Shown here: piece by piece, positions 2,112-52,442 of the stretch | Layout of the letters: every line of letters begins with the position of its first letter | How positions within the stretch are numbered: the first letter of the stretch is position 1 | NCBI GenBank assembly: GCA_963931185.1 | Contig: OZ006981.1 | Coordinates: 929,626 to 993,625 of the forward strand | DNA from: an uncultured Bacilli bacterium | GTDB taxonomy: Bacteria > Bacillota_I > Bacilli_A > RF39 > UBA660 | Direction: 5' to 3' | Length of the DNA stretch: 64,000 nucleotides | Notes under the pieces: generated by a model | What the model was told of the DNA's origin: nothing | What the model saw: the letters and a program-made list of their open reading frames with translations, nothing else | The model's database searches: none | Position numbers and translations under genes: made by a program

Positions 2112-2124
2112 GTAACCTCCTTAA

Positions 2125-13369: not shown

Positions 13370-13380
13370 AGATTAAAATA

Positions 13381-31315: not shown

Positions 31316-31479
31316 AGACACCTCCAATTTGTTGTATTAATCACTTAAATATTAAAAAAATACAAGTTTTATTTAACAAATTTTAAATTTTGTTGGCTTA
31401 ATTAGGTGTCAAAAGTCAAATTTTGTCAATTTTTATGTTATAATTGTAATTGATAGGAAATGCTTTGGAGGTAGTAGAT

Positions 31480-36235: not shown

Positions 36236-37839
36236 ATGATTTATGTATTAATTGGAGTTATAGGTATTTTGTTAATTATTATTTATGAAGAAAAACAAAA
36301 TAATAAAGATCTGTTAAAAAAATATGAAGAAAAGTTAAAAGCTTTAGAAAAACAAAACGAAATTTTAAATAACAATAAAATAGAAATTGTTTCTTTGAAA
36401 AACGAGATACAAGCATCTGAAAATAAAATTAAAGAATTAAACGAAGAACTTAGTAATTATACGCAAATAAAAAATGATTCATTAATTTTAAATGTTACAG
36501 ATGAAGATGAAATAGCTAGATATTCTGAAGATAAGGTTACAGCTGAACAAAAAATATCTGAAACTAAATCTTCAGAATTGAATGCTGAAAAACAAGAAAT
36601 ATATGAATTAATTGAAAAAACTAACTCTAATATTTTTATAACAGGTAAGGCTGGAACTGGTAAGAGTTATTTGCTTAAATATTTTAGAAAAAATACAATA
36701 AAAAAGTTTTATATTGTGCTCCAACTGGTATAGCTGCATTAAACATTGATGGTGTAACATTGCATTCTGCTTTTGGATGGAATAATTTGATTGATGAACA
36801 CGAAATAAAACTATCTTCAAATAAACTTTCCTTATTAAGAAGTATAGATACTTTGATTATAGATGAAATATCAATGGTTAGAGTAGATGTATTTAATCAA
36901 ATAGATAAAATATTGAAAAAAGCTAATAATAATTCAAAACCATTTGGTGGAAAACAAGTAATTGTATTTGGTGATTTATTTCAATTGCCTCCGGTTGCAA
37001 CAAGAGAAGAAAATGAGTTCTTTACAGATAAGTATGGAGGAATATTTTTCTTTAATGCCCCTGCATATAAAGATGGTCATTTTGAATTTAGAGAGATAAC
37101 AGAAATATTTAGACAAACGGATAAAGAATTTATTGATATATTAAATGATATTAGAGTTGGGAAAATAAATGAAGAACAAATAAAATCATTGAATCAACAT
37201 TATGTTACAGAAGTTCCGCGAAGAGTTGTGCAAGTTGTTCCTATGAAAAATGAGGCTAATAATATTAATAGTGAAAATTTAAATAAAATTAATGGTCAAG
37301 AATTTGAATATCGAGCTAATGTACTTGTTGGTAAAGATATCATAAAGGAAACTGATTTTCCATGCGATTTTGATTTGAAATTAAAAGTTGGATCTTTGGT
37401 AATGATGATAACTAATGACCAAGAACACAAGAGATGGGTTAATGGAACTTTGGGAATTATATCAGGATTATCTCCGACAATGGTTAAAGTAACAATAAAT
37501 GGTACTGATTTTGAAATATCTCCAACAACATTTAATAAATATAAATGTGAATATGATAGAGAAAACAAAACTCTCAAATATATTGTAGAAGCAAGCGTAA
37601 GTCAGTTTCCGTTGATATTGGCTTATGCAATTACTATTCATAAGTCTCAGGGAATGACATATCAACAAATAGCATGTAATTTAGAAAGCTGCTTTGCACC
37701 TGGGCAAGCATATGTAGCATTGTCTAGATGTGCAAATTATGATAAATTGTATTTAACTCAAAAAATAGATGCTAGTTCAATAATTACAGATAATGTAGTA
37801 GTTAATTTTTATAAGGATATAACTAAGAAAGGAAAATAA
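36236..37839 (+). pseudogene. Membrane-anchored PIF1/RecD-like (AAA_30) helicase, split by a frameshift in an A6 tract
   Basis: TM helix MIYVLIGVIGILLIIIY, coiled coil, Walker A GKAGTGKS (36644-36667). The frame then breaks at A6 (36700-36705). One extra A would read TIKKVLYCAPTGIAALNIDGVTLHSAFGW and join the 36760-37839 ORF (IIDEISMV, GDLFQLPPV, ITIHKSQGMTY, YVALSR). Confidence 0.8.
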
Positions 37840-37840: not shown

Positions 37841-39679
37841 ATGATAAGAGAAACAAAACAGAAACAAATCTCTGAAGTATTTTCAAATGATAGAGATTTA
37901 ATATATGAAATACCTAAGTATCAAAGAAAATATACTTGGGGTATAAATGAATGGGAATTATTATTTAATGATGTAATTGATAATGATAACGGATATTTTT
38001 TGGGTTCTACAATATGTGTAGCTAAACCAGGTAGTATATATGATGCAATTGTATCTGAAGTAATTGATGGCCAACAAAGAATGACAACTTTATCAATTTT
38101 ATTAACAGTATTGTATGCAAAAATAGCAGAACACAGAAATGAATTAGATGAAGATGAATTTATAAATTTAAATATAATTAAGAAACAATTGGCTTATAAA
38201 AAAGATGGAAAATATTATCCTAAATTAAGATTACAAATTCAAGATAATAATCAAGCTGATTTTAATAGTTTATTATATCGTCATGGCATAATAGACGAGG
38301 GAACTACACCATTAAATGCTGGAAATAGAAGAATATATAAAGCTTATAAGCACTTTGAAAAATTAGTAGATGGTTTTTTATCTTCTGATTATGCTGAAAG
38401 TAATGGCTTAAAATCAGATACAGAAGTAAAAACATTATTTAATTTGGTAAAAAGATTTAATAGTGCAGTATTAGTGGTCATCGAAGTTGATACGCATAAA
38501 GATGCATATATGTTATTTGAATCCTTAAATAATAGAGGAGTTCCTCTTACAGCTATCGATTTAATTAAAAATCTTATTATTTCAGTATCAGAAAAAGATA
38601 ATAAGTCAAATGAATGTTACGAAGTTTGGAGAGAAATCCAGAATAATTTGCAAGAAGAATATGTGGTGCAAGAAAGATTTTTTAGACAATATTATAATGC
38701 TTTTAGAGAAGAATTAAATGAACCTTTTATCTTGCCGGAATCAACCAAAAAATATCCATTAGCGTATTTAGCAACAAAAACTACATTAATGGATATATAT
38801 GAAAAATTAATAAAAAAAGATTATCAAAAATATTTGAACGATATATATTTAGCTTCTAAAAAATATGCAATTATTATAAATAATAGTGAAGAAGAAACAG
38901 CTTATGCTCCAGAATTAAAAGATTTAGAAAGAATTCAAGGAGCTCCGGGATATTTATTATTGTTGTATTTAGAGTTAAATAAAGAACAATTAAATATATC
39001 TGATAGTTTAATGAAAGATATTATAGTATTATTAATTAAATTCTTTGCCAGAAGAAATTTAACAGATATGCCTAATACAAGAGATTTAACCAAAATATTT
39101 ATGGATATAATTTCAGACATAAAATCAAATCGAGAATATATTTATGAAATTATCAAAAACAAATTGATAAGTGTGTCTGCTTTTGATGAACTTTTTGCAA
39201 CAAAACTTAAAGGACCGATTTATGATGATAATGACATGGCAACAAGATTTATTTTATGCTATATGGAATCTAAACATCAAACAAAAGAAATTTATACTGA
39301 TTTATGGTCTAGAGATAAGAGTAATAAATATATTTGGACAATTGAGCATATCTTTCCAGAAGGACAGAATATTCCTCAAGGATGGATTGACATGATTGCT
39401 AATGGTAATAAAGATTTAGCATATGAATATTTGAATAACTATGTTCATACAATTGGAAATTTAACTATTACAGGTTACAATTCAACATTAAGTAATTTAG
39501 ATTTTGATAAAAAGAAAAATAGAAAAAATTCTGAAGGTAAAGATGTTGGCTATAGAAATGGTTTGTATCTTAATGAAGATGTAGTAGCAGCAGAAAAATG
39601 GACAATTGATAGAATTAAGACTAGAACTGAAAAATTAGTTAAAGAAGTTATTGATGAATTAGATATGAATAAAAGATAA
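37841..39679 (+). CDS. GmrSD-family Type IV restriction enzyme-like protein (DUF262 plus DUF1524), copy 1
   Basis: IPKYQRKYTW, DGQQR (38066-38080), C-terminal HNH-like EHIFPE...HTIGNLTITGYNSTLSN. Starts 2 nt after the helicase stop. Confidence 0.85.
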   Translation: MIRETKQKQISEVFSNDRDLIYEIPKYQRKYTWGINEWELLFNDVIDNDNGYFLGSTICVAKPGSIYDAIVSEVIDGQQRMTTLSILLTVLYAKIAEHRNELDEDEFINLNIIKKQLAYKKDGKYYPKLRLQIQDNNQADFNSLLYRHGIIDEGTTPLNAGNRRIYKAYKHFEKLVDGFLSSDYAESNGLKSDTEVKTLFNLVKRFNSAVLVVIEVDTHKDAYMLFESLNNRGVPLTAIDLIKNLIISVSEKDNKSNECYEVWREIQNNLQEEYVVQERFFRQYYNAFREELNEPFILPESTKKYPLAYLATKTTLMDIYEKLIKKDYQKYLNDIYLASKKYAIIINNSEEETAYAPELKDLERIQGAPGYLLLLYLELNKEQLNISDSLMKDIIVLLIKFFARRNLTDMPNTRDLTKIFMDIISDIKSNREYIYEIIKNKLISVSAFDELFATKLKGPIYDDNDMATRFILCYMESKHQTKEIYTDLWSRDKSNKYIWTIEHIFPEGQNIPQGWIDMIANGNKDLAYEYLNNYVHTIGNLTITGYNSTLSNLDFDKKKNRKNSEGKDVGYRNGLYLNEDVVAAEKWTIDRIKTRTEKLVKEVIDELDMNKR

Positions 39680-39704
39680 GTCTGGAGAAAATTCAGACTT
39701 TTTT
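39678..39704 (+). terminator. Rho-independent terminator
   Basis: AAGTCTG-loop-CAGACTT followed by T-run. Confidence 0.7.
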
Positions 39705-39738
39705 CATGATATAATATAAACTATTCAGGAGGTTTAAT

Positions 39739-40455
39739 ATGTATAAAAAAATAGAAGAGTTATATAAAAAGCAAAGCCCATACAATAAAATAAAAATAAA
39801 AATGTTTTGGGCATATATTGGAATAGTTTTCTTTTTGCTATTATTCAATATAATTGATTCAAGTTTTATGATGTTATTAACAGTAATTATAACAACGATT
39901 ATAATGAAAAAAATATGTGAAAAGGAATTGAATACAAAATTGCATTTTAAATTTGATAAGAAGGACACAGAAGGTAAATTTTTAGATGAAATAATTTGTG
40001 ATAAAGAAAACGAAATGTTTAAAAACTTTTTGAGAAAAAATAAAATGGATAATTTACAAACTGTAAAATGCATTATGGAACATTATAGAAATTTAGTAAA
40101 ACCAAAAATTGTAAGTGATAATTTTTGGTCAATAATAGCAATAACAATTTCAATTTTACTTGCATTTGTAACAAAAGATGGATTTGATTTTAAAAGTTTT
40201 GAAAAAGCATTGCCATATTTAATTAGTTTTACTTTTATTATTTTAACAATTTTATTTTCTATCAAGCAATTTAGTGAAATAAGAACATTCTTAAAAGGGG
40301 AAGAAGGAATGTATGAAAGGCTAGAAGTTGTTTTTAGTGAATTATATGCTGAGAGTCTAAAAGAAAAAGATACCCCTAAGAAAAAAACTATAAAGATAAG
40401 AAATAAAAAAAGTAAAAATACTCTACCTGAAGGTACACCAAAACATCAAAAATAA
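39739..40455 (+). CDS. Membrane protein, unknown function
   Basis: 238 aa, CAGGAGG RBS, 4 hydrophobic helices, Lys-rich C-terminal tail. Confidence 0.6.
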   Translation: MYKKIEELYKKQSPYNKIKIKMFWAYIGIVFFLLLFNIIDSSFMMLLTVIITTIIMKKICEKELNTKLHFKFDKKDTEGKFLDEIICDKENEMFKNFLRKNKMDNLQTVKCIMEHYRNLVKPKIVSDNFWSIIAITISILLAFVTKDGFDFKSFEKALPYLISFTFIILTILFSIKQFSEIRTFLKGEEGMYERLEVVFSELYAESLKEKDTPKKKTIKIRNKKSKNTLPEGTPKHQK

Positions 40456-40631
40456 ATCCAAAATTCCTATTATAATTATCTTTGGGAACGAATTGGCGTT
40501 TTGATAAATTCCTCAGGAACAAATTGGGAACACTGGCATAGAACAAGATAGGTAAAATAGGGCGTTTTGCGACAAATTTGGCAAATGACAAAACAATAAT
40601 AATGCAAAATATGCTAGAAAATTAACACACG

Positions 40632-40648
40632 CCAAATCCCCCTGAAGG
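40632..40648 (+). repeat. Copy of CCAAA(T)CCCCCTGAAGG motif, no hairpin or terminator attached
   Basis: CCAAATCCCCCTGAAGG matches 15776-15791 (CCAAACCCCCTGAAGG) except for one inserted T. Confidence 0.6.
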
Positions 40649-40792
40649 ATCCATAATGCTCATTTTTCACATTTATTTTTTTAGACTATTATTAACTGAT
40701 GAATTTCTTTTTTCTAGAAAAAAAGAGTGTATGATATAAAATTTATAAAATGTGATGTATAATATTATAAAAAGATTTGGTGATGTCAATAA

Positions 40793-41443
40793 ATGAAGAA
40801 TATAAAAAGAAATATTGTATATGTTGGTTATGATTCATATTACAAAGATACTCTTAAATTACGTGATACAAAAATAAATAATATTAAACCAAATTTAATT
40901 AATATTGATACATTAGAAGAACTTGATAGAAAACAAGGATTCTTGTTGTTACTTACAATGGATGAATTATATGATTATTTTCCTAATATAGTAGATATAT
41001 TTGAACCAGATGTTTATGAAATTGATAGATATTTGAGAAAAAAGTTTAAAAATTTTGAATATGTAATTGTAATTTCAATTGAAGAGTTTGATTATGGTCA
41101 TATACCTTTTTCTAATATGTATGTAGTATTTGCAAATAACTATTTCAATACAGATGAAGGTATTAATGTCTTAATAGATAAAATATCTAAAGAATTTATA
41201 TTTAAGAAAGAAAGTAAACTATCAAAAATAAAATGTAATAATGTAGAAAAATTAATAACTTTTATTAAAAAGTCTAAGAAAGATTTTTTTTCAACAGAAG
41301 AAATAAAACAAAAATTAAATGTAAATGAAAAATGGATTCAAAGATATATGAAAGAAATGAATAATATTTATAATAATATAGGCTATAATAAAAGAAAAAG
41401 GTTATGGTATGTTGTAAAAAAAACAACACGAAAAAATAAATAA
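40793..41443 (+). CDS. Hypothetical protein with probable C-terminal winged-HTH
   Basis: 216 aa. C-terminal FSTEEIKQKLNVNEKWIQRYMKEMNNIYNNIGYNKRKRLWYV looks HTH-like. Has its own terminator. Confidence 0.55.
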   Translation: MKNIKRNIVYVGYDSYYKDTLKLRDTKINNIKPNLINIDTLEELDRKQGFLLLLTMDELYDYFPNIVDIFEPDVYEIDRYLRKKFKNFEYVIVISIEEFDYGHIPFSNMYVVFANNYFNTDEGINVLIDKISKEFIFKKESKLSKIKCNNVEKLITFIKKSKKDFFSTEEIKQKLNVNEKWIQRYMKEMNNIYNNIGYNKRKRLWYVVKKTTRKNK

Positions 41444-41451
41444 AAGCAATG

Positions 41452-41480
41452 AAAAACGTAGAAATACGTTTTATTTTTTT
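41452..41480 (+). terminator. Rho-independent terminator
   Basis: AACGTA-GAAA-TACGTT followed by TTATTTTTTT. Confidence 0.65.
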
Positions 41481-41556
41481 GTCCATCACAAAACACTAGT
41501 CCAGCAAAAATTTTAATTAAGAGTTATAGTTATATCAAGAAAAGGAGGAATAGCAT

Positions 41557-42261
41557 ATGTTAGAGTTTGTTGAAAACCTATTAAGTTCACAAGATAACAT
41601 TATAGATCAGCTAAAATTATTAAGAGAAAATAAAAATAATAAGGAGGTTAAGAAATATATGCGAGCTCTTGTTAAAGACAATAACTCGCCATATTTCAAA
41701 TATTGTATTGACAAATATTATTTTAATAAAGATGTAAAGGAGGTAAAACCATCAATAAGACCATTAAGACCACTGTATCATTTGAAAGAAACACAAAAAA
41801 TACAGAGTCTTTTAGAATCTAGAAATAATATTATTGATCAACTTAAGTTACTAAAAGAATATAAAAGTACTAAATATGTTGATACTTATATTAAAGAATA
41901 CTTAGAACTTTGGTCAAATGAGTACGAAGCTTACTGCATTCAAAAATATTACTATGATATGGATGTTAAAGAAGTAGAACCTAATGCCAAAAGTCTTAAT
42001 ATTACTTTATATAGAATTTCTTTTAAAGAAACAGAAAGTAAACAAGAAAAAGACAAACAAAATGGTTATGCAAAATCAGTCAAGAAAAACGATAAAATAA
42101 AAATACTAGATGGTCCTTTTAAAAATCAAATCGGAATAGTAAATTCCTTTGATAGAGATAATTCTAAAATATTTGTTACAATTTCTCTTTTTGAAGAAAA
42201 ATTTAATATAGAATATGATGGTAAGTTTGAAAAAATTAAGGAGGCTAAAAGTGAAAAATAG
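41557..42261 (+). CDS. Protein with two tandem ~75-aa repeats and a C-terminal KOW (NusG-CTD-like) domain
   Basis: AAGGAGG RBS. Repeat 1 is SSQDNIIDQLKLLRENKNNKEVKKYMRAL...YCIDKYYFNKDVKEVKP. Repeat 2 is ESRNNIIDQLKLLKEYKSTKYVDTYIKEY...YCIQKYYYDMDVKEVEP. KOW is KIKILDGPFKNQIGIVNSFDRDNSKIFVTISLFEEKFNIEYDGKFEKI. Confidence 0.75.
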   Translation: MLEFVENLLSSQDNIIDQLKLLRENKNNKEVKKYMRALVKDNNSPYFKYCIDKYYFNKDVKEVKPSIRPLRPLYHLKETQKIQSLLESRNNIIDQLKLLKEYKSTKYVDTYIKEYLELWSNEYEAYCIQKYYYDMDVKEVEPNAKSLNITLYRISFKETESKQEKDKQNGYAKSVKKNDKIKILDGPFKNQIGIVNSFDRDNSKIFVTISLFEEKFNIEYDGKFEKIKEAKSEK

Positions 42262-44926
42262 AATAGAGTTACATGCTAAAACAAAATATAGCATAGACCA
42301 TGAAAGTACAATCGATATTAAAGAATTAATATTAAAGTGTGCCAGTAATGGTGAAAAAGGTGTAGCTATTGTTGATAAAGATAGCGTCCTTAGTTTTTTA
42401 AAAGCAGAGAAAATACTAAAAGAATTAAATATAAAAAATTTTAAATTAGTATATGGAATAGAGGTAAATGTTTTTATTGAAAAACTAACTTATAAAGCTG
42501 TAATTCTATTAAAGAAAAGAAATGGACTTTCCACACTATATAGAATGTTATCCCCTTACTTCACTAATAATAAATTACTATTAGAAGATTTAATGCTTAG
42601 TAAAAAGAATTTTATAATTGGTTTAATATATGAACAAGACAATTATAATTCTAATATATTACAATATTTTAATTATGTAGAAGTAGATGATAAAGTATCT
42701 GAAGAAGTAATTGCCAATTTAAAAAGAAAGACTTTAGTAGTTTACTCAAATAGAATTAATGCCTTATCAAAAGATGAAGAATTAAGTAAAAAAGTTCTTT
42801 ATAACAAATTACATATAAAAGAAAAAATTGATACTAGAATCTATAAAAGTACACAAGAAATTTTAAAACAGGTAAAAGATATTGAAATTGTTATTGATAA
42901 CCCTAATAAAATATTTAATATGATAGAGAATTTCAACTTGTTAGAAAATAACATTTATTTACCTGTAGATGATAATTCATATATTGATTTGTTAGTGAAT
43001 ACTAAACTGAATGAAAAATATAATAATGATATTCCGTTGAAAGTAAAAAAACGTATTGAAGAAGAATTGAAACTTATTAAAGAACATAATTATGAAGGAT
43101 TCATTAATTTATATAAAAAAATAATTGATAAGTGCAAAGAAGAACAGGAAGAATATGTTATTTGTGATTACATTAATTATTTATATATTGCTTATTTACT
43201 AGGAATAACACATTTTAATCCAATAAAGCATAATCTAAATTACGAACTTTTTTTTATCAATCATCCCAAAATCACCATTAAAATATCACCAGAATTTGTT
43301 AAAAAATTAAATATTTTTATTAAAGAAGAACTAAATGTTAATATGATTAGATGTAAAGGATTGATGAGATTAAATAGTAGTAATGTTAAAAATATAATTA
43401 GTGATTATAAGAAAAAATATAATATTAAAATCTCTACTTCGGATAAGTTACTTATAAATAAATATTTAATGAATTATCCAATTAATAATTGGGCATTAAC
43501 TCCAAAGAATTTTATATTACCTGCTGGTGTTAATATATTTGACTTATCACCCCGTGAACTTATAAAAGAAGATGATTCATATCATAGAGTTACAAATATA
43601 GATTATAAGGATATTGAAGAAAACTTTATAACATTAGAATTAATAGCAACTGATAAATTAATGCATTTAATGGAATTGAAAGACATTACTAAAGATAAGA
43701 TAATTAATTGTAATTATAAAGATAGTAATATTATAAAAAATGAAGCTTTTCAAGATTATTTAGAAGCTTATCAAAAAGATATATTATTGGATGATTTATA
43801 TGAAGACTGTTTAAATAGTAAAATTGATTTAATTGAAATATTTAATATAATTAATGAAATAAAGCATGAAAAAAATATTTCTAATAAAACTAAGAAAATA
43901 TTGACTAAAAACAATATAGTAATAAACGACAAGAATGCTAATTTTATTTGTAGAGGCATATTAAATGAAAGAACTAGATTAGAATATGAACTATTGTATT
44001 TTAAAAAATATTATCCATTAGAGTACTATTATGTTTTATTAAAAGATTGTCCTTTTAATGATATTATAGACATTATAAAAAATGGTTATGAAGAGGTTAA
44101 AAATAGAATTAAAGATTATTCAAAATATAGATATGAATATAAATATTTAAAGTTAGTAGCAAAGTTATATGAATCAAATATTAATTTTTCTATTGAAGAA
44201 AGAGAAATAGTAGAAGATTATTGTTTTGAATTAGATAAGGAAAATAAAAAAATAATTTTAATAACTAATAAGACAAATAATGAAATTTATAAATATTTAT
44301 CTAATAATTTATCTGTAATAGGAACAAGACCAATAAATGGAAAAATGCCATATATGAGTAAAATAATCGCTAAATTAATAAGAATTAATAAAGATGTAAT
44401 ATTGTTTGGATTAGATGGAAAAACTAATTTTTATTTAGAATATCTATTATCGGAAATAACTAGAATAGATAGAAAAGCAATTAGGCAATATTTAAATCCA
44501 TGCTCTTGCTATAAGGATAGTATTTTAACAATCGATGAAGAACGTTATATTAATGGAATAAGATATTTGTTATATCATAATTTAACAATAAAAGATTACC
44601 ATAATGTTAAAGATATTATTATTGATGATTCTAACATGATGATAGATAAATTAATTTATATGATTGAAGAGAGTGAAAGTAAAGTAATAATCATTGATAG
44701 AGTTGAATCTATAGAAGGTAATATTAGTAATACTTTAGAAAGAATAAAAGAAATTGCTAAATTAAAAAAACTTAATGTCATACTTTTTACAAATCTAAAA
44801 AAAGAATATGAAGAATCTAACAAAAAGGATATATCTTCGTTTGAAAATAATGAATTGTTGGATAAATATGTTGATTATATAAATATTTTAGATGGTAAAG
44901 AGTTATATCATATAAAGGAAAAATAA
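42251..44926 (+). CDS. Pol III alpha (DnaE/PolC)-like protein with substituted catalytic residues, fused to a DnaB-C-terminal-like RecA domain
   Basis: GTG 42251 follows AAGGAGG. PHP-like N-terminus has ELHAKT instead of HxH and IVDK instead of (I/V)TDH. Conserved scaffold motifs are retained (PLKVKKRIEEELKLIKEHNYEGF, LLGITHFNP at 43196-43222, LYFKKYYPLEYY). The palm motif reads HPKITIKI (43262-43285) where the family has PDIDxDF. The C-terminal ~230 aa follow the DnaB RecA-domain pattern (GTRPINGKM 44321-44347, VILFGLDG, VIIIDRVESIEG). Confidence 0.65.
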   Translation: MKNRIELHAKTKYSIDHESTIDIKELILKCASNGEKGVAIVDKDSVLSFLKAEKILKELNIKNFKLVYGIEVNVFIEKLTYKAVILLKKRNGLSTLYRMLSPYFTNNKLLLEDLMLSKKNFIIGLIYEQDNYNSNILQYFNYVEVDDKVSEEVIANLKRKTLVVYSNRINALSKDEELSKKVLYNKLHIKEKIDTRIYKSTQEILKQVKDIEIVIDNPNKIFNMIENFNLLENNIYLPVDDNSYIDLLVNTKLNEKYNNDIPLKVKKRIEEELKLIKEHNYEGFINLYKKIIDKCKEEQEEYVICDYINYLYIAYLLGITHFNPIKHNLNYELFFINHPKITIKISPEFVKKLNIFIKEELNVNMIRCKGLMRLNSSNVKNIISDYKKKYNIKISTSDKLLINKYLMNYPINNWALTPKNFILPAGVNIFDLSPRELIKEDDSYHRVTNIDYKDIEENFITLELIATDKLMHLMELKDITKDKIINCNYKDSNIIKNEAFQDYLEAYQKDILLDDLYEDCLNSKIDLIEIFNIINEIKHEKNISNKTKKILTKNNIVINDKNANFICRGILNERTRLEYELLYFKKYYPLEYYYVLLKDCPFNDIIDIIKNGYEEVKNRIKDYSKYRYEYKYLKLVAKLYESNINFSIEEREIVEDYCFELDKENKKIILITNKTNNEIYKYLSNNLSVIGTRPINGKMPYMSKIIAKLIRINKDVILFGLDGKTNFYLEYLLSEITRIDRKAIRQYLNPCSCYKDSILTIDEERYINGIRYLLYHNLTIKDYHNVKDIIIDDSNMMIDKLIYMIEESESKVIIIDRVESIEGNISNTLERIKEIAKLKKLNVILFTNLKKEYEESNKKDISSFENNELLDKYVDYINILDGKELYHIKEK

Positions 44927-44927
44927 G

Positions 44928-45599
44928 ATGGACAAGGTTAAAGAATATATTTTAAACAATAAGATTACACTTGTTATTACTTCACCAAACTCAAAAATTT
45001 TATCTATTATTAATTTACTAAATGAATTATCAATTAAAGGAAAATATAAGACTGTTTTATTCAGTTTTAACATTAGCTGTAATTATTATTTACAAAAGTT
45101 AATATCATTTCTATCAGGTATTAACAATAGTATAATCACAAAGTATTTTTATCCATATGTAATAAATAGTAAAAAGAATAGAGATAAGATTAATCGTAAT
45201 AAATTTATTGATTCAATAGGAGAAATACAGAGTAGCAATATTTTAATGAATAGTGAAAAATATGCTGTTGATAAAGATTATTTAGATTATATTCTAGATT
45301 ACTCAGAAAGCAATGTGTTAATAATTGATGATTTTTATGCATTACTAGATAAGACAAAGTATAGTCTAGATGAAATACTAATAAAAGTAAAAGAGAAACA
45401 AGATATTCATTTAGTTTTATTTATAAAGACAAAATATAAAGAAAAAGTAGTAAGACAATTTGCCGAAGTAATAAGAAATTATATTTTTATAGATGGATTT
45501 AATTATGAGGAATATAAAGAGATAAATATTAATATTTTAAATAAAACATTCAAATTGCAATTAAATAAAATGAATCAAATAATGAAGACAAACGATTAA
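44928..45599 (+). CDS. DnaB-C-terminal-like (RecA-fold) protein with degenerate Walker A
   Basis: TLVITSPNSKILSIINLLNELSIKGKYKTVLFSFNISCNYYLQKLISFLSGINNSII parallels DnaB ...ARPxMGKT...V..FSLEM...L..R......i. Walker B-like VLIIDDF. Starts 2 nt after the upstream stop. Confidence 0.55.
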   Translation: MDKVKEYILNNKITLVITSPNSKILSIINLLNELSIKGKYKTVLFSFNISCNYYLQKLISFLSGINNSIITKYFYPYVINSKKNRDKINRNKFIDSIGEIQSSNILMNSEKYAVDKDYLDYILDYSESNVLIIDDFYALLDKTKYSLDEILIKVKEKQDIHLVLFIKTKYKEKVVRQFAEVIRNYIFIDGFNYEEYKEININILNKTFKLQLNKMNQIMKTND

Positions 45600-45718
45600 G
45601 AAAATTGATAAATTTGAAAATATATTGTAAGAGTTTATATTATTAAAGAGCATTGGAGTTTTTAAGAAAAGTAAGGGCTGATACGCTATACTAAGATTAG
45701 TAAGTTAGAGGTGAGTAT

Positions 45719-46954
45719 GTGAAATTAAAAATATTAAAAGGTACTAGTGAAATAGGTGGATGCATAACAGAAATAGTAAGTAATAAAGGAACAAGGATTA
45801 TTATTGATCTAGGCGAAGATTTACCAGATGATAATGTATCAAAATGTGAAAATCCAAATATTGATGGCTTAACCATAGGTGATAAAAAGTATGATGCAGT
45901 TTTTATTACACATAGCCATGGTGATCATATTGGTCTAATAAATTATGTGTTAGATGGTATCGATGTTTATGTTGAACCTACTTCCAAAATAATATATAGT
46001 TTATTATCTACTTTTACACATAAGAAAATAAGATTTAAAACTAAAGATATGTTTTTTAAAAAAAAGATAATAATTAATGATGATATAATTGTGACACCAT
46101 ATATAGTTGATCATTCATCATATAATTCATCAATGTTATTAATTGAGGCTGATGGCAAGAAGGTACTGCACACAGGAGATTTCAGAAATCATGGAGTTAA
46201 AGGTAAATTGTTTGTACCAACACTAAAAGAAATTGGAAATGTTGATATAATTGTAACTGAAGGAACTTCTTTAAGTAGAGGTAATGTTAAATATAAAACA
46301 GAGGAAGATATAGTTAAAGAAGCCAAAAGGGTATTTTATAACTATGACCAAGTTTTTATTTTACAATCATCAACAAATATTGATCGTATTAGAGGTTTTT
46401 ATAAAGCAGCAAAAGAAACTGACAAAAATTTTATAGAAGATCTTTTTACTTCAAATATAACAGTTTCTTTAAAAAATGATTCTATTCCTAATCCTAAAAC
46501 ATTTAATGATGTTTATACATGGATACCAAGAAGATATCTAGACAAATCATTTCGGTTTAAGAAAAAGTATTTGTTTCCTTTTTTGAAATATAGTAAGCAA
46601 AAATCTTATGTTAATAATAAATATGCATTAATGGTAAAGACATCGATGATTGAAGACATAAAAAAACTATATAATAAAAATCATATTACTAATGCGTGTT
46701 TAGTATATTCAATGTGGGAAGGATACAAAGAAAAAGTAGAAATGAAAACCTTTTTTGAAGAGGTGAAGAAATATGGAATTTCTGATATAATAGACATACA
46801 TACCTCAGGTCACGCTGATAAAGAAACTCTTGGTTTATTAAGTTTTCTTAAAGCAAAAAAGATAATTCCTATACATACAATCAAAAAAGAGGAATTATCC
46901 AATATTTTAGATAATGTTTATTTATTAGATGATAATGAAATATTAGATGTATAG
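45719..46954 (+). CDS. Metallo-beta-lactamase / beta-CASP-type nuclease (RNase J/CPSF-like fold)
   Basis: GTG start follows AGAGGTGA. HSHGDH (45911-45928), HTGDFRNHG, TEGTSL, and C-terminal HTSGHADKETL...IPIHT (beta-CASP motif C-like). The catalytic set looks intact. Confidence 0.75.
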   Translation: MKLKILKGTSEIGGCITEIVSNKGTRIIIDLGEDLPDDNVSKCENPNIDGLTIGDKKYDAVFITHSHGDHIGLINYVLDGIDVYVEPTSKIIYSLLSTFTHKKIRFKTKDMFFKKKIIINDDIIVTPYIVDHSSYNSSMLLIEADGKKVLHTGDFRNHGVKGKLFVPTLKEIGNVDIIVTEGTSLSRGNVKYKTEEDIVKEAKRVFYNYDQVFILQSSTNIDRIRGFYKAAKETDKNFIEDLFTSNITVSLKNDSIPNPKTFNDVYTWIPRRYLDKSFRFKKKYLFPFLKYSKQKSYVNNKYALMVKTSMIEDIKKLYNKNHITNACLVYSMWEGYKEKVEMKTFFEEVKKYGISDIIDIHTSGHADKETLGLLSFLKAKKIIPIHTIKKEELSNILDNVYLLDDNEILDV

Positions 46955-46966
46955 AAGGAGATATTT

Positions 46967-48406
46967 ATGGATAACATAAGTAATTTAAATATTAGTGATA
47001 TTGCTAAACAAGTTATTAAAAGATATGTTGGTAAAAAAGATTATGTTGTAAGAATTAGAGTAAATAAAAAAAATAAAAAACACAAAGTAGAAATTGTTGT
47101 ATATTATGAAGGAAGAAAATCATTTGAAGTTAAAGACAATAAGTTATTGTTAGATGGAGCTTATTTCTTTACTAAAGGAAATAAAAAAATTACACATTCT
47201 ATGGAGACGGAAATTGCTTGTTTAACTAAATTAGGTTTTTCATTTAAAATTGGTACCAAGATTGATTCTACTAATCAATATTATAAAGATGGATATAGAT
47301 ATCGTATTTTTGTAGAACCTTCTAGTGCTAAAAAAGGATCTAAAGAATGTTATGACAATTATAAAGAAGAAATAAAAGAAAGAATGGAAGTTATTTTAGA
47401 AGCTTTAAAAAGATATGATAATGATTTTATATATCATTATGATAATGAAACAAATATAAATAGTTTTTATACTAAAAAAGTTGATAATACTATTAATTAT
47501 TTTAAATTAAATGAATTATTAAAAATAGGTATAGATAACACTGTTAAACAAAAAGGCATTAAGAAAATCAAATTTAATGAAAAATTGGTTGGTTCCCAAA
47601 CGACCTATACTGAAGAAGAATATAGAATAATAGATTCTATTATGGAAAATAGAATTAAGACATATAATTTTGGAGTTCTTTTAGAAGAAAATAAAGAAGA
47701 ATATATCGATAACAATGAAAAAATATATCAACAATTACTTATGAACAAGATGTTTGATAAAAACGAAAGAGAACAACTTTTCAAAGTGGATAATTGTCCT
47801 TTTAAAGATAGCAATGCATATGAAATGGAATATAACTTATATGCTGCAAATAGAACTAATCGTAAACAGAAAACAAAAAAAGGAAGAGTAGATAATATAT
47901 TTATCAGTGGTAATAAGATTTTATTTACTGAATTAAAATATGACGAAAAAGTTATTGGCGGTACAAATGGAATTCATAAGCATTTAATTGATTTAATTAA
48001 TGGATTTGAAAAAAATGATGAAGCTTTATCTGAAATATATGACTATGTATGTGATTACAATGATGTGTTAACTTACATTAATGATAAAGAAGAATATATT
48101 ATTAAAAATGTGAAGAGATTTAATGACAAAGAAGTAGAAAAAGAATTTATAATTATATGTGGATATTCAAACAGTAAAAGGGATGTTGTTTATAATGAAT
48201 TAGAAAGAGTTTATCCTCTAACAGGAAAAAATGCTGGAGTAGAAAAATCATATGAGATATTTTTAGATAACAAAAAAATTAATTTAGAGGATATGACTAC
48301 TGAATGGTTGATTTCTTTACTTAAAAATAGATATCATTGTGAAACTAAGATTTTCATAGTAGATAACAATTATACTAAATTTGAAATATATCAAAAAAAA
48401 GTATAG
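46967..48406 (+). CDS. Hypothetical 479-aa protein with a putative PD-(D/E)xK nuclease core in the C-terminal half
   Basis: AAGGAG RBS. YEMEYNLY...GRVDNIFISGNKILFTELKYDEK (about 47882-47946) fits E...D...ExK. Nothing else recognised. Confidence 0.5.
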   Translation: MDNISNLNISDIAKQVIKRYVGKKDYVVRIRVNKKNKKHKVEIVVYYEGRKSFEVKDNKLLLDGAYFFTKGNKKITHSMETEIACLTKLGFSFKIGTKIDSTNQYYKDGYRYRIFVEPSSAKKGSKECYDNYKEEIKERMEVILEALKRYDNDFIYHYDNETNINSFYTKKVDNTINYFKLNELLKIGIDNTVKQKGIKKIKFNEKLVGSQTTYTEEEYRIIDSIMENRIKTYNFGVLLEENKEEYIDNNEKIYQQLLMNKMFDKNEREQLFKVDNCPFKDSNAYEMEYNLYAANRTNRKQKTKKGRVDNIFISGNKILFTELKYDEKVIGGTNGIHKHLIDLINGFEKNDEALSEIYDYVCDYNDVLTYINDKEEYIIKNVKRFNDKEVEKEFIIICGYSNSKRDVVYNELERVYPLTGKNAGVEKSYEIFLDNKKINLEDMTTEWLISLLKNRYHCETKIFIVDNNYTKFEIYQKKV

Positions 48407-48494
48407 AGTATGTAAATATGAAATCCTTTCATGATAACAAAATAATCTTTGATAGAAAGTGTATAAGATACAAATAAGTGATGATTATTTGAAC

Positions 48495-48525
48495 GGTCAA
48501 TGCGTTAAGCATTGGCTATTTTTTT
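48495..48525 (+). terminator. Rho-independent terminator of the 41557-48406 operon
   Basis: GGTCAATGC-GTTAA-GCATTGGC followed by TATTTTTTT. Confidence 0.7.
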
Positions 48526-48946
48526 AATTACTTTAATAAAATATTACTTTTTTCAATAAAGATGTTATGATAATTATTACCAAGAGTATTTTTAATAAAA
48601 GGTAAAAAAATTAGTAATGTTTTAATTTGAAGTTTTCATATAAGAATAAATATTTGATTTATAATTATTCAATTAATTTTTCAGCAAACTATAATTTTTA
48701 TGATTTAAAGTATATAATAAGTCTTGATAAATTATATAAAATTCTTATAATTCATTATCTAAATTAATTGATAAATAAACAATGTTTCTTCCTATAATTA
48801 TCTGTTTTATTTAAATTTCCTATAATGACATTTTCAATAAACGTTTCAAATCAATAGTAATGATGCATTTTAAGTTTAAATTAGAATTTATAATATCTTT
48901 ACTTAATTTAATCATAATGATAAAATTACTATGGTGATGATTAGTT

Positions 48947-49534
48947 ATGAAAAAATATTGGAAAATAATAATTATTATAGTTGGTATAATTGCTGTTTTT
49001 GCTTTGTTTTTATTAATTTATTTTAAAGTTACTTTTATTGGAAAAGATGCTGTAAAAAAAATAGTTATTGATAATATGAATGTTTCAAGTAGTGAAGTTT
49101 ATTTTGAAAGCATTGAATTAGAACTTGATAAGAATTATTATGAGGTTGAAGTTTACTATAAAAATAGAGATTATGAATATAAAATACATGCCAAAGAAGG
49201 AAAAGTAATATATACTGACTTTTTAAGTTACGATAACAATAACAATACTAATAATAATGGTAATAATATCAACGGTAATGGTAATTCAAATGGTAATGGA
49301 AATAGTAATTCTAATAATGCAAAAATTAGCTTACAAGAAGCTAGAAATATTGCTTTAGCTCATGCTAATTTAGATGTTAGTGTTGTTAACATGGTAAAAT
49401 GTGAAAGTGAATATGATAATGGTATTTTAATTTATGAAGTAGAATTTACTTATAACAATTATGAATATGATTATAAAATAGATGCTAGGACAGGAGAAAT
49501 TGTTAGCTTTGATAAAGATAATATTTATAATTAA
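48947..49534 (+). CDS. Membrane-anchored protein with two PepSY domains and an Asn/Gly linker
   Basis: TM helix IIIIVGIIAVFALFLLIYF. PepSY-like YYEVEVYYKNRDYEYKIHAKEGKVIY and ILIYEVEFTYNNYEYDYKIDARTGEIVSF. Confidence 0.75.
   Translation: MKKYWKIIIIIVGIIAVFALFLLIYFKVTFIGKDAVKKIVIDNMNVSSSEVYFESIELELDKNYYEVEVYYKNRDYEYKIHAKEGKVIYTDFLSYDNNNNTNNNGNNINGNGNSNGNGNSNSNNAKISLQEARNIALAHANLDVSVVNMVKCESEYDNGILIYEVEFTYNNYEYDYKIDARTGEIVSFDKDNIYN
49232..49318 (+). repeat. Coding low-complexity AAT/GGT-rich tract (Asn/Gly linker)
   Basis: Encodes DNNNNTNNNGNNINGNGNSNGNGNSNSNN. Imperfect trinucleotide repeats. Confidence 0.7.
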
Positions 49535-49648: not shown

Positions 49649-50539
49649 ATGAAATCATATAAAAAAATATTAATAGCTTTTATTTTAAATATTTCGTTTT
49701 CAATTTTTGAATTTATTGGTGGATTGTTTACAAATAGTATATCAATTATGTCAGATGCAGTACATGATTTTGGCGATGCATTAAGTATTGGCACATCACT
49801 AGTATTAGAAAAGATAAGTAAAAGAAAACCTGATTCATCATATACCTATGGTTATGCAAGATATTCTATACTAGGAGCATTGATTACAACTATCGTTTTA
49901 ACAATTGGTTCAATTTTTGTTATAACAAATGGAATAAGTAGAATATTAAATCCAGAAGTTATAAATTATAATGGAATGATATTGTTTGCTATATTTGGTG
50001 TATTAATTAATTTTACAGCAGCTTACTTTACAAGAGATGGAGAATCAATTAACCAAAAAGCTGTCAATTTACATATGTTAGAAGACGTTTTAGGTTGGGT
50101 AATAGTTTTAATTGGTTCTATATTAATAAAATATACAAACATTTCAATATTAGATTCAATTATGTCTATTTGTATCGCAATATTTATATTAATAAATGCA
50201 TTTAAAAATATGAAAGAAATATTGGATTTGTTTTTAGAAAAAACTCCAAAAAATATATCTATTGAAAAAATTAAGTATCATATAATGAAAATAAAAGGAA
50301 TTGCTGATGTTCATCATATTCATGTCTGGAGTATGGATGGAATAGCTAATTATTCTACTATGCATATAGTTACAAAAGAAAAAAACATTAAAGAAATAAA
50401 AAATAAAGTTAAAGAAGAAATGAAAAAACATAATATTATCCATACAACTATTGAAGTTGAAGAAACCAATGATGACTGTAATGAAAAAGATTGTATTGTA
50501 AAAATAGATAATGAGCATTCGACTCACCATCATCATTAA
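49649..50539 (+). CDS. Cation diffusion facilitator transporter (CzcD/ZitB-like)
   Basis: Six TM helices, SDAVHDFGDALS motif, HMLEDVLGW, C-terminal His-rich tail EHSTHHHH. Confidence 0.85.
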   Translation: MKSYKKILIAFILNISFSIFEFIGGLFTNSISIMSDAVHDFGDALSIGTSLVLEKISKRKPDSSYTYGYARYSILGALITTIVLTIGSIFVITNGISRILNPEVINYNGMILFAIFGVLINFTAAYFTRDGESINQKAVNLHMLEDVLGWVIVLIGSILIKYTNISILDSIMSICIAIFILINAFKNMKEILDLFLEKTPKNISIEKIKYHIMKIKGIADVHHIHVWSMDGIANYSTMHIVTKEKNIKEIKNKVKEEMKKHNIIHTTIEVEETNDDCNEKDCIVKIDNEHSTHHHH

Positions 50540-50741
50540 TAAAAAATATTTAATATCTAAAATAAAAAAGATTAGAAAATTAAAAAAATTATTGTTATAA
50601 TTTTTAGACTATTGACAAATAAATGTTAATTGTTTTTTTATTTATAAATAAAAAATTAAATATAAATAACAATACTATACTATTAAATAATAAAAATAAA
50701 CGATAAAATATGCTATAATTTCATTAAGAGGTGATTAGTTG

Positions 50742-52442
50742 ATGGGGACTATTAGAGAATTTATGGATCAAGCTGAAGGCGGAAAATTAATATTACCATC
50801 TATACAAAGAGAATATGTATGGAACGAAGAACAAATCTGTAGACTATTTGATTCAATAATGAGTGAATATCCAATTGGTCATATGATGTTGTGGAAATTA
50901 GATGGAAGTAAAATAAATGAAAAAGGGATAACATTTTATAAATTATTAAATAATTATAATGAAATGATTCCAGAAAACAATGAGAAACTTGAAAACCCAT
51001 CACCTGATAAAACTTATTTTGCTATATTAGATGGACAACAAAGAACACAATCATTATATATTGGTTTAAAAGGTTATTTAAAATTAAAAATATATAGAGC
51101 ACGAAAAAATAATGTAGAATCCTATAAAAATAAATATTTATATATTAACTTAATAGGAGAAGAAAGTGAACTTGATGAATATAAATATGAATTTAAATTT
51201 TTTGCCGATGAAGAATTAAAAAACAAAGAAAATGAAAATAAATTTTTCTTTAGAGTAGGCAAAATATTGCAATATGATAGATTACCTAATATAAATGATA
51301 TCGAAAATATTAAAAATATACAACTTAATGATGAACAAAAAAGAATAGCTCAAGATATTTTATTTAATTTATATCAAAAAATAAATGTTAATGACAGTAT
51401 ACTTCATTGGGATATTATTTCAAGTGATAAGTCATTGGATAATGTATTAAATATTTTTATAAGAACTAATAGTGGCGGAACTGTATTAAGTAAAACAGAT
51501 TTATTATTTTCTACTGTTGTAGCTAATTGGGAAGATGCAAGAAAAAATATTGAAGAGTTACTTGACAGAATTAATAATAAAGGTGGGCAAGGAGTAAGAT
51601 TTAATTTTACAAAAGATTTTATTATGAGAACTCTTATGTATCTATTGGATGAACCTGTAACATTAAAACTTAATGACATAAAAGATAATATACAAAGCAT
51701 GAGAGAAAACTGGGAATTATTAAGTAGTGCTATTTCAAAAGCTCCATCAGTATTAAAATATGCTGGATATAATGGAGAAAATTTAATTTCATATAATGCA
51801 GTTATGCCTATAATATATTATATATATAAAGGAGGATTTTTAAAGAAAACTGACACAATAGATTATAATCCTATGGAAGAACTAAAAAAATATTTAGTAA
51901 TTGCTCAAATGAAAAAATTATTTGGAGTTGCAAGCAATAATACTTTAACTAATGTTAGAAATGCCCTTATTGACAAAAATAAAAAATTGCGTAATAAATA
52001 TTTTAAACTCAATGATTTAAATAATGTTAATATTGTAGGAAACAGAGATTTCAGTGTAAACGATGAAATAATTGAATCGTGGTTTGAAGAAAATAAAAAT
52101 GACTATACTTTTATGATTTTAACATTGCTATATCCATGTGCTGATATTGAAAAAGTTAAATATCATCAGGATCACATGCATCCGGAGTCTAAATTAAAAA
52201 ACAATCCAAAATTTTACAATCTAAGAAATCGTTTAGCAAATCTTCAATTGCTTCCCGGAGATGAAAATGAAAGTAAAAACGACACAGACTTGGAAGAATG
52301 GTTAAACTTAGATAATGATAGATTAAAAAATACAAGGTATCTACCAGAGTGTTCTAAAAAAATTGAAGATTATGAAATTTTTTTGGAAGAACGAAAAAAG
52401 TTAATGAAAGAAGAATTATTAAAAATTTTAAAAATTAATTAA
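50742..52442 (+). CDS. GmrSD-family protein (DUF262 plus DUF1524), copy 2
   Basis: LPSIQREYVW, DGQQR (51030-51044), C-terminal HQDHMHPES...LANLQLLPGDENESKND. Confidence 0.8.
   Translation: MGTIREFMDQAEGGKLILPSIQREYVWNEEQICRLFDSIMSEYPIGHMMLWKLDGSKINEKGITFYKLLNNYNEMIPENNEKLENPSPDKTYFAILDGQQRTQSLYIGLKGYLKLKIYRARKNNVESYKNKYLYINLIGEESELDEYKYEFKFFADEELKNKENENKFFFRVGKILQYDRLPNINDIENIKNIQLNDEQKRIAQDILFNLYQKINVNDSILHWDIISSDKSLDNVLNIFIRTNSGGTVLSKTDLLFSTVVANWEDARKNIEELLDRINNKGGQGVRFNFTKDFIMRTLMYLLDEPVTLKLNDIKDNIQSMRENWELLSSAISKAPSVLKYAGYNGENLISYNAVMPIIYYIYKGGFLKKTDTIDYNPMEELKKYLVIAQMKKLFGVASNNTLTNVRNALIDKNKKLRNKYFKLNDLNNVNIVGNRDFSVNDEIIESWFEENKNDYTFMILTLLYPCADIEKVKYHQDHMHPESKLKNNPKFYNLRNRLANLQLLPGDENESKNDTDLEEWLNLDNDRLKNTRYLPECSKKIEDYEIFLEERKKLMKEELLKILKIN

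Follow-up and report, generated by a model that had tools for sequence, protein, structure and literature searches.

A Pol III alpha homologue with inactivated catalytic sites, fused to a degenerate DnaB-like domain, is maintained in a nuclease cassette of an uncultured Bacilli bacterium

We analyzed a stretch of 64,000 nucleotides (nt) from an uncultured Bacilli bacterium (GTDB lineage Bacteria; Bacillota_I; Bacilli_A; RF39; UBA660; assembly GCA_963931185.1, contig OZ006981.1, positions 929,626 to 993,625 of the forward strand), hereafter called the window, in which all coordinates are given unless a locus is named. The gene at 42251..44926 on the + strand encodes a protein of 891 amino acids (aa) whose body is a homologue of the DNA polymerase III alpha subunit (Pol III alpha) that has lost the aspartate triad of the palm and most metal ligands of the PHP domain, and whose C-terminus is a degenerate DnaB-type RecA domain. 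Two conclusions have high confidence, each on its own. The first is that selection maintains the protein as a pseudoenzyme; the second is that its gene is part of a conserved cassette of several genes, among them that of a predicted live beta-CASP nuclease. As to function, we give a probability of about one half to the reading that the protein is a non-catalytic, replisome-derived scaffold or sensor which would work with the nuclease in an anti-mobile-element system.

Results

The similarity to Pol III alpha, first proposed in a reading of the sequence without database searches (hereafter the sequence-only reading), is not spurious. The protein scored above the cut-offs of both relevant Pfam profiles, PHP PF02811 (36 bits, cut-off 26.4) and DNA_pol3_alpha PF07733 (42 bits, cut-off 23.9), the latter over profile positions 2-94 only and ending just before the palm motif; NCBIfam PolC (65.6 bits) and PHROG 405 "DNA polymerase" also matched. 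A phmmer search against PDB sequences returned PolC only (9qpc, E 3.8e-10; 3f2b, E 1.9e-8), with collinear sub-alignments at the PHP start, the palm N-terminus, the strand of the third Asp and the last fingers helix. An AlphaFold2 model built from 20 family sequences, with a mean predicted local distance difference test score (pLDDT) of 88.5 and a predicted template-modelling score of 0.74, was matched best in Foldseek by Geobacillus kaustophilus PolC (3f2c, E 1.5e-35, TM 0.66, 838 columns), other PolC and DnaE structures following at E 1e-30 to 1e-22 (DnaE E 1e-24). The identity to cellular PolC is only 13-16%. Residues 1 to ~660 make up a Pol III alpha of compact PolC type. Among viral models searched with Foldseek no protein covered both halves of the fusion; phage Pol III alpha and phage DnaB matched the two halves separately.

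A long open reading frame (ORF) on the + strand spans 42215..44926 and would give 903 aa if read from its first ATG (42215). We take the GTG at 42251 as the true start because a GGAGG lies 6 nt before it and because the database homologues of the polymerase gene, of 891 aa, are all called from the equivalent codon. This is the start chosen in the sequence-only reading, whose motif positions were also correct (ELHAKT at 42266-42283, IVDK at 42368-42379, PKITIKI at 43265-43285). The G+C content of the gene, ~21-24%, is similar to that of the remainder of the window. The gene is laid out as follows.

42240..42244, + strand: Shine-Dalgarno sequence GGAGG, 6 nt before the GTG start
42251..42970, + strand: dead PHP domain (aa 1-240), without the PolC DnaQ insertion; 3 of 9 metal ligands kept
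42971..43690, + strand: palm and thumb (aa 241-480); Asp triad replaced by K340 and T342 (43268-43276) and by E (ITLELI, ~43640)
43691..44230, + strand: reduced fingers and linker (aa 481-660), with a ~65-residue deletion of the region binding deoxynucleoside triphosphate (dNTP); terminal helix LYFKKYYPLEYY kept
44231..44926, + strand: degenerate DnaB-type RecA domain (aa 661-891), with GTRPINGKM, FGLDG, VIIIDRVE and TNLKK

The catalytic columns were read by script, against three genuine PolC sequences, from an alignment that also held the window protein, 11 homologues of its own long family, four of a short family and the compact polymerase P0022. The retained structural motifs line up with PolC as had been claimed (the ERLxxEL-like helix, LGITxxNP, the LxLDILG register and the YFKxxYP helix), and the fold and domain order, PHP-palm-thumb-fingers, are those of PolC and of compact mobile-element Pol III alpha. 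In the palm, PDIDLNF reads PKITIKI (first Asp to Lys, second to Thr) and KLDILG reads TLELIA (third Asp to Glu). Across the family the first position is K, R, N, S, Y, E or Q and the second T, N, S, E, C or M, Asp being found at either in none of 16 long-family and none of seven short-family members; the third is an invariant Glu in the long family and K, N, A or Q in the short one. When the PHP metal site was scored by the nine-ligand definition HHDHEH[C/H]DH (PMC12926913), the window protein read H K D K E K - R N: the first, third and fifth ligands survive (H8, D42 and the Glu at GxE), the second, fourth and sixth are His-to-Lys, the Cys at the seventh is deleted, and the eighth and ninth are Asp-to-Arg and His-to-Asn.

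The earlier claim that every recognizable catalytic residue had been exchanged for Lys or Thr is thus right for the first two palm Asp, which are indeed Lys and Thr, and in so far as six PHP ligands are gone; it does not extend to the three surviving PHP ligands or to the third Asp, which is Glu. Replacement by Lys as a pattern did not hold up either. Only the changes at the second and ninth PHP ligands (to Lys and Asn) are invariant in the family, so that an invariant Lys is found only at the second His of HxH, and the other substituted catalytic positions vary (K/T/N/S/R/Q/E/Y), which indicates relaxed constraint and not a specific exchange for Lys. The fingers are reduced as well: a gap of ~65 columns (~1220-1290), found only in the long family, removes the segment GIPEF...SGLSHGT that is present in PolC, P0022 and the short family. 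PF17657 (fingers), PF14579 (helix-hairpin-helix, HhH) and an OB fold were undetected in the polymerase by the Pfam scan, and neither was a clamp-binding motif found. Compared with PolC, the window protein therefore keeps the PHP/Pol III alpha core, but its triad is K/T/E, its fingers are incomplete, it lacks the DnaQ insertion, the N-terminal OB and the HhH/clamp-binding domain, and it ends in a RecA domain; with six of nine ligands lost, it does not have the metal site of an active PHP exonuclease or phosphoesterase.

The C-terminal ~230 residues had been taken for a DnaB-type RecA domain, and three lines of evidence agree. Foldseek matched DnaB-family structures at E 5e-8 to 8e-6, 9oa1 included (DnaB 4zc0, 5e-8; G40P 3bh0, 1.4e-6; Helicobacter pylori DnaB C-terminal domain 4a1f, 3.7e-6), with an identity to DnaB of ~15%; PF03796 is found, weakly, among the precomputed matches of homologues; and the motifs are in register with DnaB 6kza (RPINGKM/RPSMGKT, FGLDG/FSLEM, TNLKK/SQLNR), following the order RPxxGK-, FxL-, hhhhD and -NL-- of the DnaB/G40P RecA domain. 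Of the active-site residues, the Lys of the P-loop and the Asp of Walker B (VIIIDRVE) remain. Walker A has Met in place of the Mg-binding Ser/Thr (Ile in one family member), family members carry D, N, G or S where the catalytic Glu would stand, and the Gln/Arg sensors are altered, SQLNR becoming TNLKK. NTPase activity is doubtful because of the GKM P-loop and the lost catalytic Glu, and the domain would at most bind nucleotide, probably without hydrolyzing it. Of a DnaB helicase it has the RecA-like fold, but not the Walker A, catalytic Glu and SQLNR residues nor the N-terminal domain (PF00772, which binds primase), in whose place stands the polymerase body; in the locus L009, described below, the DnaB N-terminal domain is a separate gene. 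In full-text literature searches we met with neither a C-family polymerase whose palm is dead nor this fusion, and no source annotation gives the family proteins a name, in line with the earlier impression that the fusion was undescribed.

Selection was estimated by the Nei-Gojobori ratio of nonsynonymous to synonymous substitution rates (dN/dS). The window gene was compared with three homologues, whose proteins are 85%, 72% and 71% identical to its own, and two of these homologues were compared with each other. The ratio was 0.22-0.27 overall; domain by domain it was 0.17-0.36 in all four, even in the dead PHP and palm. An uninterrupted frame of 886-900 aa is found in at least 15 clusters, at 50-99% identity; shorter cluster members, of 485-774 aa, also exist. 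Because of these ratios and the intact ORFs, the gene is not a pseudogene, in which dN/dS near 1 and frame disruptions would be seen, and the pseudoenzyme reading has survived profile, alignment, structure and selection tests. The family is rare: a search of 185,579 species representatives gave three loci, two of them in uncultured Bacilli and one, the nearest reference locus, in an uncultured gut Clostridium sp. An exhaustive hidden Markov model search of 1.84 billion cluster representatives returned one long-family (1346 bits) and one short-family protein (636 bits) and fragments, below which scores drop to 338 bits and a large pool of compact 700-900 aa PolC-like proteins. Collections of 50,697 phage records and 72,556 plasmid records contained no family member, apart from a 23% match to a 5 kb phage-collection fragment.

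The polymerase gene lies in a block of genes that are all on the same strand.

39678..39700, + strand: terminator-like hairpin with T-run, closing the upstream GmrSD gene; left block boundary
39739..40455, + strand: 238 aa predicted membrane protein inside the block; no family match
40793..41443, + strand: 216 aa regulator-like protein, N-terminal REC/flavodoxin-like alpha/beta domain and C-terminal winged helix
41557..42261, + strand: 234 aa NusG/LoaP-like KOW protein (KOW PF00467, 24.4 bits; NCBIfam nusG/LoaP weak)
44928..45599, + strand: 223 aa stand-alone paralogue of the DnaB-like C-terminus of the polymerase; P-loop lost
45719..46954, + strand: 411 aa RNase J-like beta-CASP metallo-beta-lactamase (MBL) nuclease; HxHxDH and HTSGHAD intact
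46967..48406, + strand: 479 aa protein with a conserved E...GRxD...ExK...TNGIHKHxxD pattern
48495..48517, + strand: terminator-like hairpin; right block boundary

The block looks like an operon with translational coupling, because its genes overlap or abut and two terminators bracket it: the KOW and polymerase genes overlap by 11 nt, 1 nt separates the polymerase gene from the 223 aa gene and 12 nt separate the MBL from the 479 aa gene, and the two hairpins are the only terminator-like sites in 39600-49000, where 0.8 were expected. Cassette membership was judged from the contexts of homologues, together with reciprocal BLAST/phmmer. The constant members are the ~215 aa protein, the KOW protein, the polymerase and the ~410 aa MBL (46-85% identity). 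The MBL is predicted to be the one clearly live enzyme of this universal core; HxHxDH and the beta-CASP HTSGHAD (motif C) are kept in all family members, and its closest structures are EF2904 (2az4, 3.7e-14) and RNase J (3e-11). The ~480 aa protein is a frequent member, with homologues in L001, L090, L092, L005, L107 and L118. It had no Pfam, NCBIfam, PADLOC or PDB sequence match, and at the level of motifs only it looks like a PD-(D/E)xK-like protein. The 238 aa membrane protein is probably outside the system because it is not conserved in other cassettes, being absent upstream of those in L001, L005, L090 and L092.

The 216 aa regulator (Pfam HTH_11, weak; AlphaFold2 pLDDT 89.6) has 63 homologues, all unannotated, which are found in long-family, short-family, L098 and L101 cassettes. 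Its winged helix resembles BrxR/CapW (probability 0.96 over ~75 aa), and the whole chain had no significant fold match. In the KOW protein, residues 5-76 and 84-156 form an internal tandem duplication (45% identity, E 5e-20), which stands where a recognizable NGN domain would be expected; the 234 aa form precedes the polymerase gene in most long-family loci, and homologues of 145-158 aa, without the duplication, follow the MBL in the short family (L011, L015) and in L094. The 223 aa protein matched the polymerase C-terminus at E 1e-7 to 7e-8 (BLAST/phmmer), and its ~225 aa counterpart is absent in L090. A further ~340 aa protein, RNase_T/DnaQ-like, is encoded in L001, L005, L092/93, L094 and L006/7 and in neither the window nor L090; it shares homology with the exonuclease domain that real PolC contains (E 1e-10 to 1e-16). 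All copies have lost Exo III (H-x4-D), E, N or T stands in for the Asp of Exo II, and Exo I in the long family reads NIE, NIK or KAK; by these motifs this epsilon-like partner is predicted to be dead. In L001 its gene (13345-14385) lies between the 225 aa gene and the MBL, likewise in L005 and L092. The 119 nt spacer upstream of the window MBL (45600-45718) is conserved with L090 and holds a promoter-like TTGAAA-16-TATATT at 45614-45641. Short-family loci (L006 13994-14962, L015 12049-13050) carry an extra, PHP-less second Pol III alpha fragment of 322-333 aa, consisting of the palm N-terminus and of fingers that still have the segment missing from the long family. Reference genomes have a single long-family locus, L010 (5179-14468); it is rearranged, with an HTH-like gene, a 692 aa ORF, an MBL-like gene, a KOW gene and a polymerase truncated to 491 aa, and may represent two tandem or decaying cassettes.

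In a neighbour-joining (NJ) tree the long family, the short family and P0154 formed one clade. P0154 has a dead palm (NFALNT) and is fused to an FtsK-gamma winged helix, and other compact representatives are palm-dead too in a register set by eye (P0039 KISLNF, P0097 NISINY, P0153 TMVIVV). P0039 lies in a WYL-headed operon of ~14 small genes that includes a short canonical DnaB_C protein; the loci of P0039 and P0154 are L096 8001-10124 and 15670-16326, and L095 3243-5672. Among hits longer than 950 aa, 66 kept the three palm Asp (DDD) and 2 did not; at 950 aa or less the numbers were 42 and 53, with 24 of the 53 belonging to the dead polymerase clade, and ~40% of the compact representatives outside that clade were palm-dead. 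These counts are a lead and not a frequency, because the profile was built from dead proteins and the hit list is biased. The midpoint-rooted NJ tree could not show what encloses the dead clade; scores and gene context suggest that it is nested within live compact polymerases. The L012-L089 proteins (~20% identity), considered as a further dead branch, turned out to be ordinary chromosomal PolC of 1150-1500 aa.

Some relatives retain parts that the window protein has lost. P0022 (731 aa) has an intact DDD, a partly degenerate PHP and a DnaB with canonical motifs, and its gene order in L009 is WYL, tubulin/FtsZ-like, polymerase, DnaB-N, DnaB-C and AAA+. Two more loci were reached via MBL homologues, for which 85 further loci were examined. 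L101 (3247-16061) encodes DUF1016, a 968 aa polymerase, a homologue of the 216 aa regulator, a 255 aa DnaB-like protein (GKV/FDG) and an MBL; the polymerase is DnaE-like with full architecture, intact DDD and a dead PHP, and the cassette directly precedes the polC gene of the host, whose product has an unusual length of 1672 aa. The L098 polymerase, of 690 aa, has a dead palm (D-N-G) and is accompanied by a homologue of the 223 aa protein (E 7e-21), by Macro, NUDIX and DUF1016 proteins and by an MBL. The loci thus form a series, from a live polymerase with canonical DnaB (L009), through a live polymerase with degenerate DnaB-like protein and MBL (L101) and a dead polymerase with DnaB-like protein and MBL (L098), to the fusion in the window. 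In the simplest history consistent with these sequences, a mobile-element polymerase-helicase module would have gained the MBL, lost helicase hydrolysis and then polymerase catalysis, and in the window lineage the polymerase would finally have been fused to one DnaB-like copy.

Pairing with a polymerase is confined to the close sub-branch of MBL homologues. Those of at least 40% identity often adjoin a Pol III alpha homologue, live in L106 and L116 and dead in L110, L111 and L128, and those of 38% or less have as their partner an unrelated protein of ~330 aa, whose homologue is encoded by the last gene in the L009 module. In L122-L185 (e.g. L184 6994-9407) this ~330 aa protein regularly precedes the distant MBL, several of the loci being on IMG/VR contigs, and the pair may be a separate two-gene system.

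The sequence-only reading had implied a phage setting, which we did not find. The first 20 kb of the window carry ordinary chromosomal genes (for PFOR, RecG, an acyl-CoA ligase-type enzyme, a hybrid histidine kinase, glycosyltransferases and a dockerin protein), the lone phage-collection match is the 23% one to the 5 kb fragment, and there was no plasmid match; phage origin was therefore rejected, and the gene sits in a chromosomal defence island beginning at about 24 kb. The order near the cassette is GmrSD, cassette, PepSY, two CDF transporters around a GmrSD_N gene, and GmrSD at 59 kb. Elsewhere the cassette lies after PemK, NERD and a methyltransferase (MTase) with RE_MamI (L005); after an MTase/Eco57I gene, McrB and McrC (L090); after HsdR, an OLD-TOPRIM protein and an MTase with RE_MamI (L092); after T5orf172 and an AAA+/S8 peptidase pair (L093); and, in L001, directly behind the gene of a 435 aa integrase and ahead of a DDE transposase, with secA to one side and chromosomal genes to the other. 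In the window, L005, L090 and L092, restriction-modification (R-M), McrBC, OLD or GmrSD genes lie within 10 kb. No RNA elements or tRNAs were found in the window, and around the cassette there were no origin-like iterons beyond the chance repeats of AT-rich DNA.

Other features of the window are as follows. Overlapping Fic/DOC (with HTH_17) and Ser/Thr protein kinase genes at 24730-26431, on the left side of the island, may form another conflict module. A 266 aa tyrosine integrase (minus strand), a phage replisome organiser (Phage_rep_org_N and Phg_2220_C) and an HNH endonuclease at 28123-30875 look like the remnant of a prophage or integrative element at the island edge. An intact 1592 aa Type ISP R-M enzyme occupies 31450-36228 (Mrr_cat_2, ResIII/helicase, ISP coupler, and Type_ISP_C at E 2.6e-92). 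At 36236-37839 a PIF1-like helicase is frameshifted into two ORFs (36236-36733 and 36760-37839); its motif PTGIAALNIDGVTLHSAFG reads through 36721-36777 in the frame of the second ORF, and the A-run at 36700-36705 is a plausible slip site, the gene being a pseudogene or carrying a sequencing error. Three GmrSD-family Type IV restriction genes lie within 22 kb (37841-39679, 50739-52442 and 59319-61040), the middle one having the N-terminal domain only and standing between CDF paralogues at 49649-50539 and 52542-53438. In the chromosomal part, the 1142 aa ORF at 9941, considered as a second intact polymerase, is the PFOR gene and not DnaE; and a cadherin-like-domain protein and an SH3 and dockerin type I protein, encoded at 645-4191 on the minus strand, suggest a cellulosome-type or fibre-associated Clostridia host.

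Discussion

We consider it about an even chance that the cassette is an anti-mobile-element defence system, because of its island context, its patchy and mobile distribution, its modular turnover and its nuclease cargo. On this reading a mobile-element replication unit, a polymerase gene followed by dnaB, would have been exapted into the operon, which would spread horizontally and have the fusion protein as its central subunit. The DnaB-like domain of the fusion and the 223 aa paralogue could oligomerize to form a ring or scaffold, the dead polymerase body would keep its shape to bind a nucleic-acid structure or an invader replication protein, and the epsilon-like subunit may sit on the PHP face, much as epsilon is bound by alpha. 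PHP is described as a structural, epsilon-binding module in two papers (PMC3666897, PMC3664792). Such an assembly would recruit or license the MBL nuclease, and perhaps the PD-(D/E)xK-like one, against invader nucleic acid, and the outcome would be anti-phage or anti-plasmid defence.

Several points weigh against this reading. The defence role is guilt by association, and L006 of the short family and L101, next to the host polC, have no obvious defence neighbours. The MBL is RNase J-like and could have an RNA target or a housekeeping or repair function. The epsilon-like gene and the 223 aa paralogue must be dispensable, because the former is missing in the window and both are missing in L090, and close mimicry of a host enzyme is unlikely because the identity to cellular PolC is so low. 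Against PADLOC-DB v2 the polymerase, 223 aa, MBL, 479 aa and KOW proteins had no match at E<=0.01, and the regulator had one marginal match, to IetA (E 0.0073, 13.8 bits); a catalogued defence system was rejected since no cassette protein gave a meaningful match.

Another reading, which we regard as unlikely, is that the cassette is a replication or maintenance module of an integrative element or satellite, in which the dead polymerase-helicase, as initiator or adaptor, would bind at the origin of the element and bring in the replisome of the host, or else block that of a helper phage, a role likened to that of the non-catalytic polymerase subunits of other replisomes. It would agree with the descent from a polymerase-dnaB pair accompanied by tubulin/FtsZ-like and AAA+ genes (L009), with the integrase directly upstream and the transposase downstream in L001, with the window's own integrase and phage replisome organiser, ~12 kb upstream, with the DDD palm of some relatives (L101, L106, L116) and with the few MBL homologues on IMG/VR contigs. 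However, neither iterons nor origin-like repeats flank the cassette, most copies have no adjacent integrase, and the family is missing from the phage and plasmid collections. Primase, SSB, clamp and packaging genes are not present either, two nucleases would be odd cargo for a replicon, and the cassette sits among R-M and Type IV systems as other defence genes do.

The proteins could also act as an integrated decoy or guard, the alpha-, epsilon- and DnaB-like members mimicking host targets of phage takeover proteins, so that a phage inhibitor binding the decoy would release or activate the nuclease for abortive or targeted immunity. Three replisome components kept non-catalytic under purifying selection beside a live nuclease in one operon, and in a defence island, would suit such a device. 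We nevertheless think it rather improbable: at 13-16% identity to PolC and ~15% to DnaB the surfaces are unlikely to match those of the host, the clamp-binding/HhH, OB and DnaB N-terminal domains, which are common interaction hubs, are missing, and the lineage comes from mobile-element polymerases and not from the host's own.

A role in DNA repair or damage tolerance seems improbable as well. Here the inactive RecA-fold and polymerase parts would organize the beta-CASP nuclease, in the manner of SNM1/Artemis, at damaged ends or stalled forks. Beta-CASP enzymes include DNA-repair nucleases, and L101 has a live DnaE-like polymerase in the same type of cassette, beside the host polC. The proposal draws on an analogy with the ImuA'-ImuB-DnaE2 mutasome, where the same parts logic is seen, an inactive RecA-like protein and an inactive polymerase with a C-family polymerase (PMC12926913). 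The distribution is very patchy for such a function, however, and the island and integrase association, the rapid gain and loss of parts and the decaying L010 copy fit accessory conflict genes better; the closest solved relatives of the MBL are of RNase J type, and no LexA or SOS features came up, though none were specifically examined. Finally, a decaying, functionless remnant or an active polymerase with non-canonical residues is very improbable: all canonical catalytic palm residues are gone, the L010 copy is truncated and shorter cluster members exist, but the gene is under purifying selection in all domains, keeps its ~890 aa frame, has a strong ribosome-binding site and translational coupling and yields a confident, compact predicted fold, and residual activity is hard to reconcile with variable, non-acidic residues in place of the first two carboxylates and with the deleted dNTP-binding fingers segment.

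The scaffold or sensor reading has parallels among known systems. Gabija GajA/GajB and Hachiman HamA/HamB are defence operons that combine a helicase or ATPase with a nuclease, and BrxR/CapW are winged-helix regulators. The cassette resembles these in pairing a candidate sensor of NTPase fold that would handle nucleic acid with a nuclease effector, with a winged-helix regulator at its head and a place in defence islands; it differs in that the candidate sensor is a dead polymerase with a probably non-hydrolyzing RecA domain and the effector a beta-CASP MBL. Inactive polymerases used as scaffolds are known as well. ImuB is an inactive Y-family polymerase acting with ImuA' and DnaE2 (PMC12926913), herpesvirus UL8 is described, in a work cited in PMC4889955, as an inactivated B-family polymerase in the helicase-primase complex, and another report describes the non-catalytic C-terminal half of Pol epsilon bound to CMG (PMC6265327). 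The likeness is a catalysis-dead polymerase fold that selection retains and that is physically joined to a helicase or RecA-like partner; those proteins are of the Y and B families, whereas the window protein is of the C family, has its degenerate helicase-like partner fused to it and lies in a defence island, not in a replisome. Prokaryotic PolX has likewise lost a polymerase site and carries a PHP domain (PMC9226535, PMC12926913), but its PHP exonuclease is active, which explains its retention, and that of the window protein is dead too. Surveys of bacterial polymerases from 2014 and 2026, which cover inactive Y, X and B family members, report inactivation of PHP only, and not of the palm, in the C family. 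The window protein, with its fused DnaB-like domain, would be the first C-family case of a polymerase that serves as a scaffold without catalysis.

A bolder version of the scaffold or sensor reading, which taken as a whole is only tentative, makes this the first recognized non-catalytic C-family polymerase and the core of a new immune-system class, a "ghost replisome" (dead alpha, dead epsilon and two copies of degenerate DnaB) that would sense replication intermediates or takeover proteins of invaders and unleash the beta-CASP nuclease, compact mobile-element PolC-like proteins having perhaps lost catalysis and been exapted repeatedly as sensors or scaffolds. Since inactive polymerase scaffolds are known for the B, Y and X families, the window family and the other palm-dead compact lineages would fill the C-family gap and would indicate that a replicase fold can be retained for binding alone. 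As a candidate for a new anti-mobile-element system the operon is concrete and open to testing, with an unusual design principle in which several replisome parts would serve as non-enzymes beside one live nuclease. If true, this would link the exaptation of replication modules to immunity and give a handle on how the replication of invaders is sensed.

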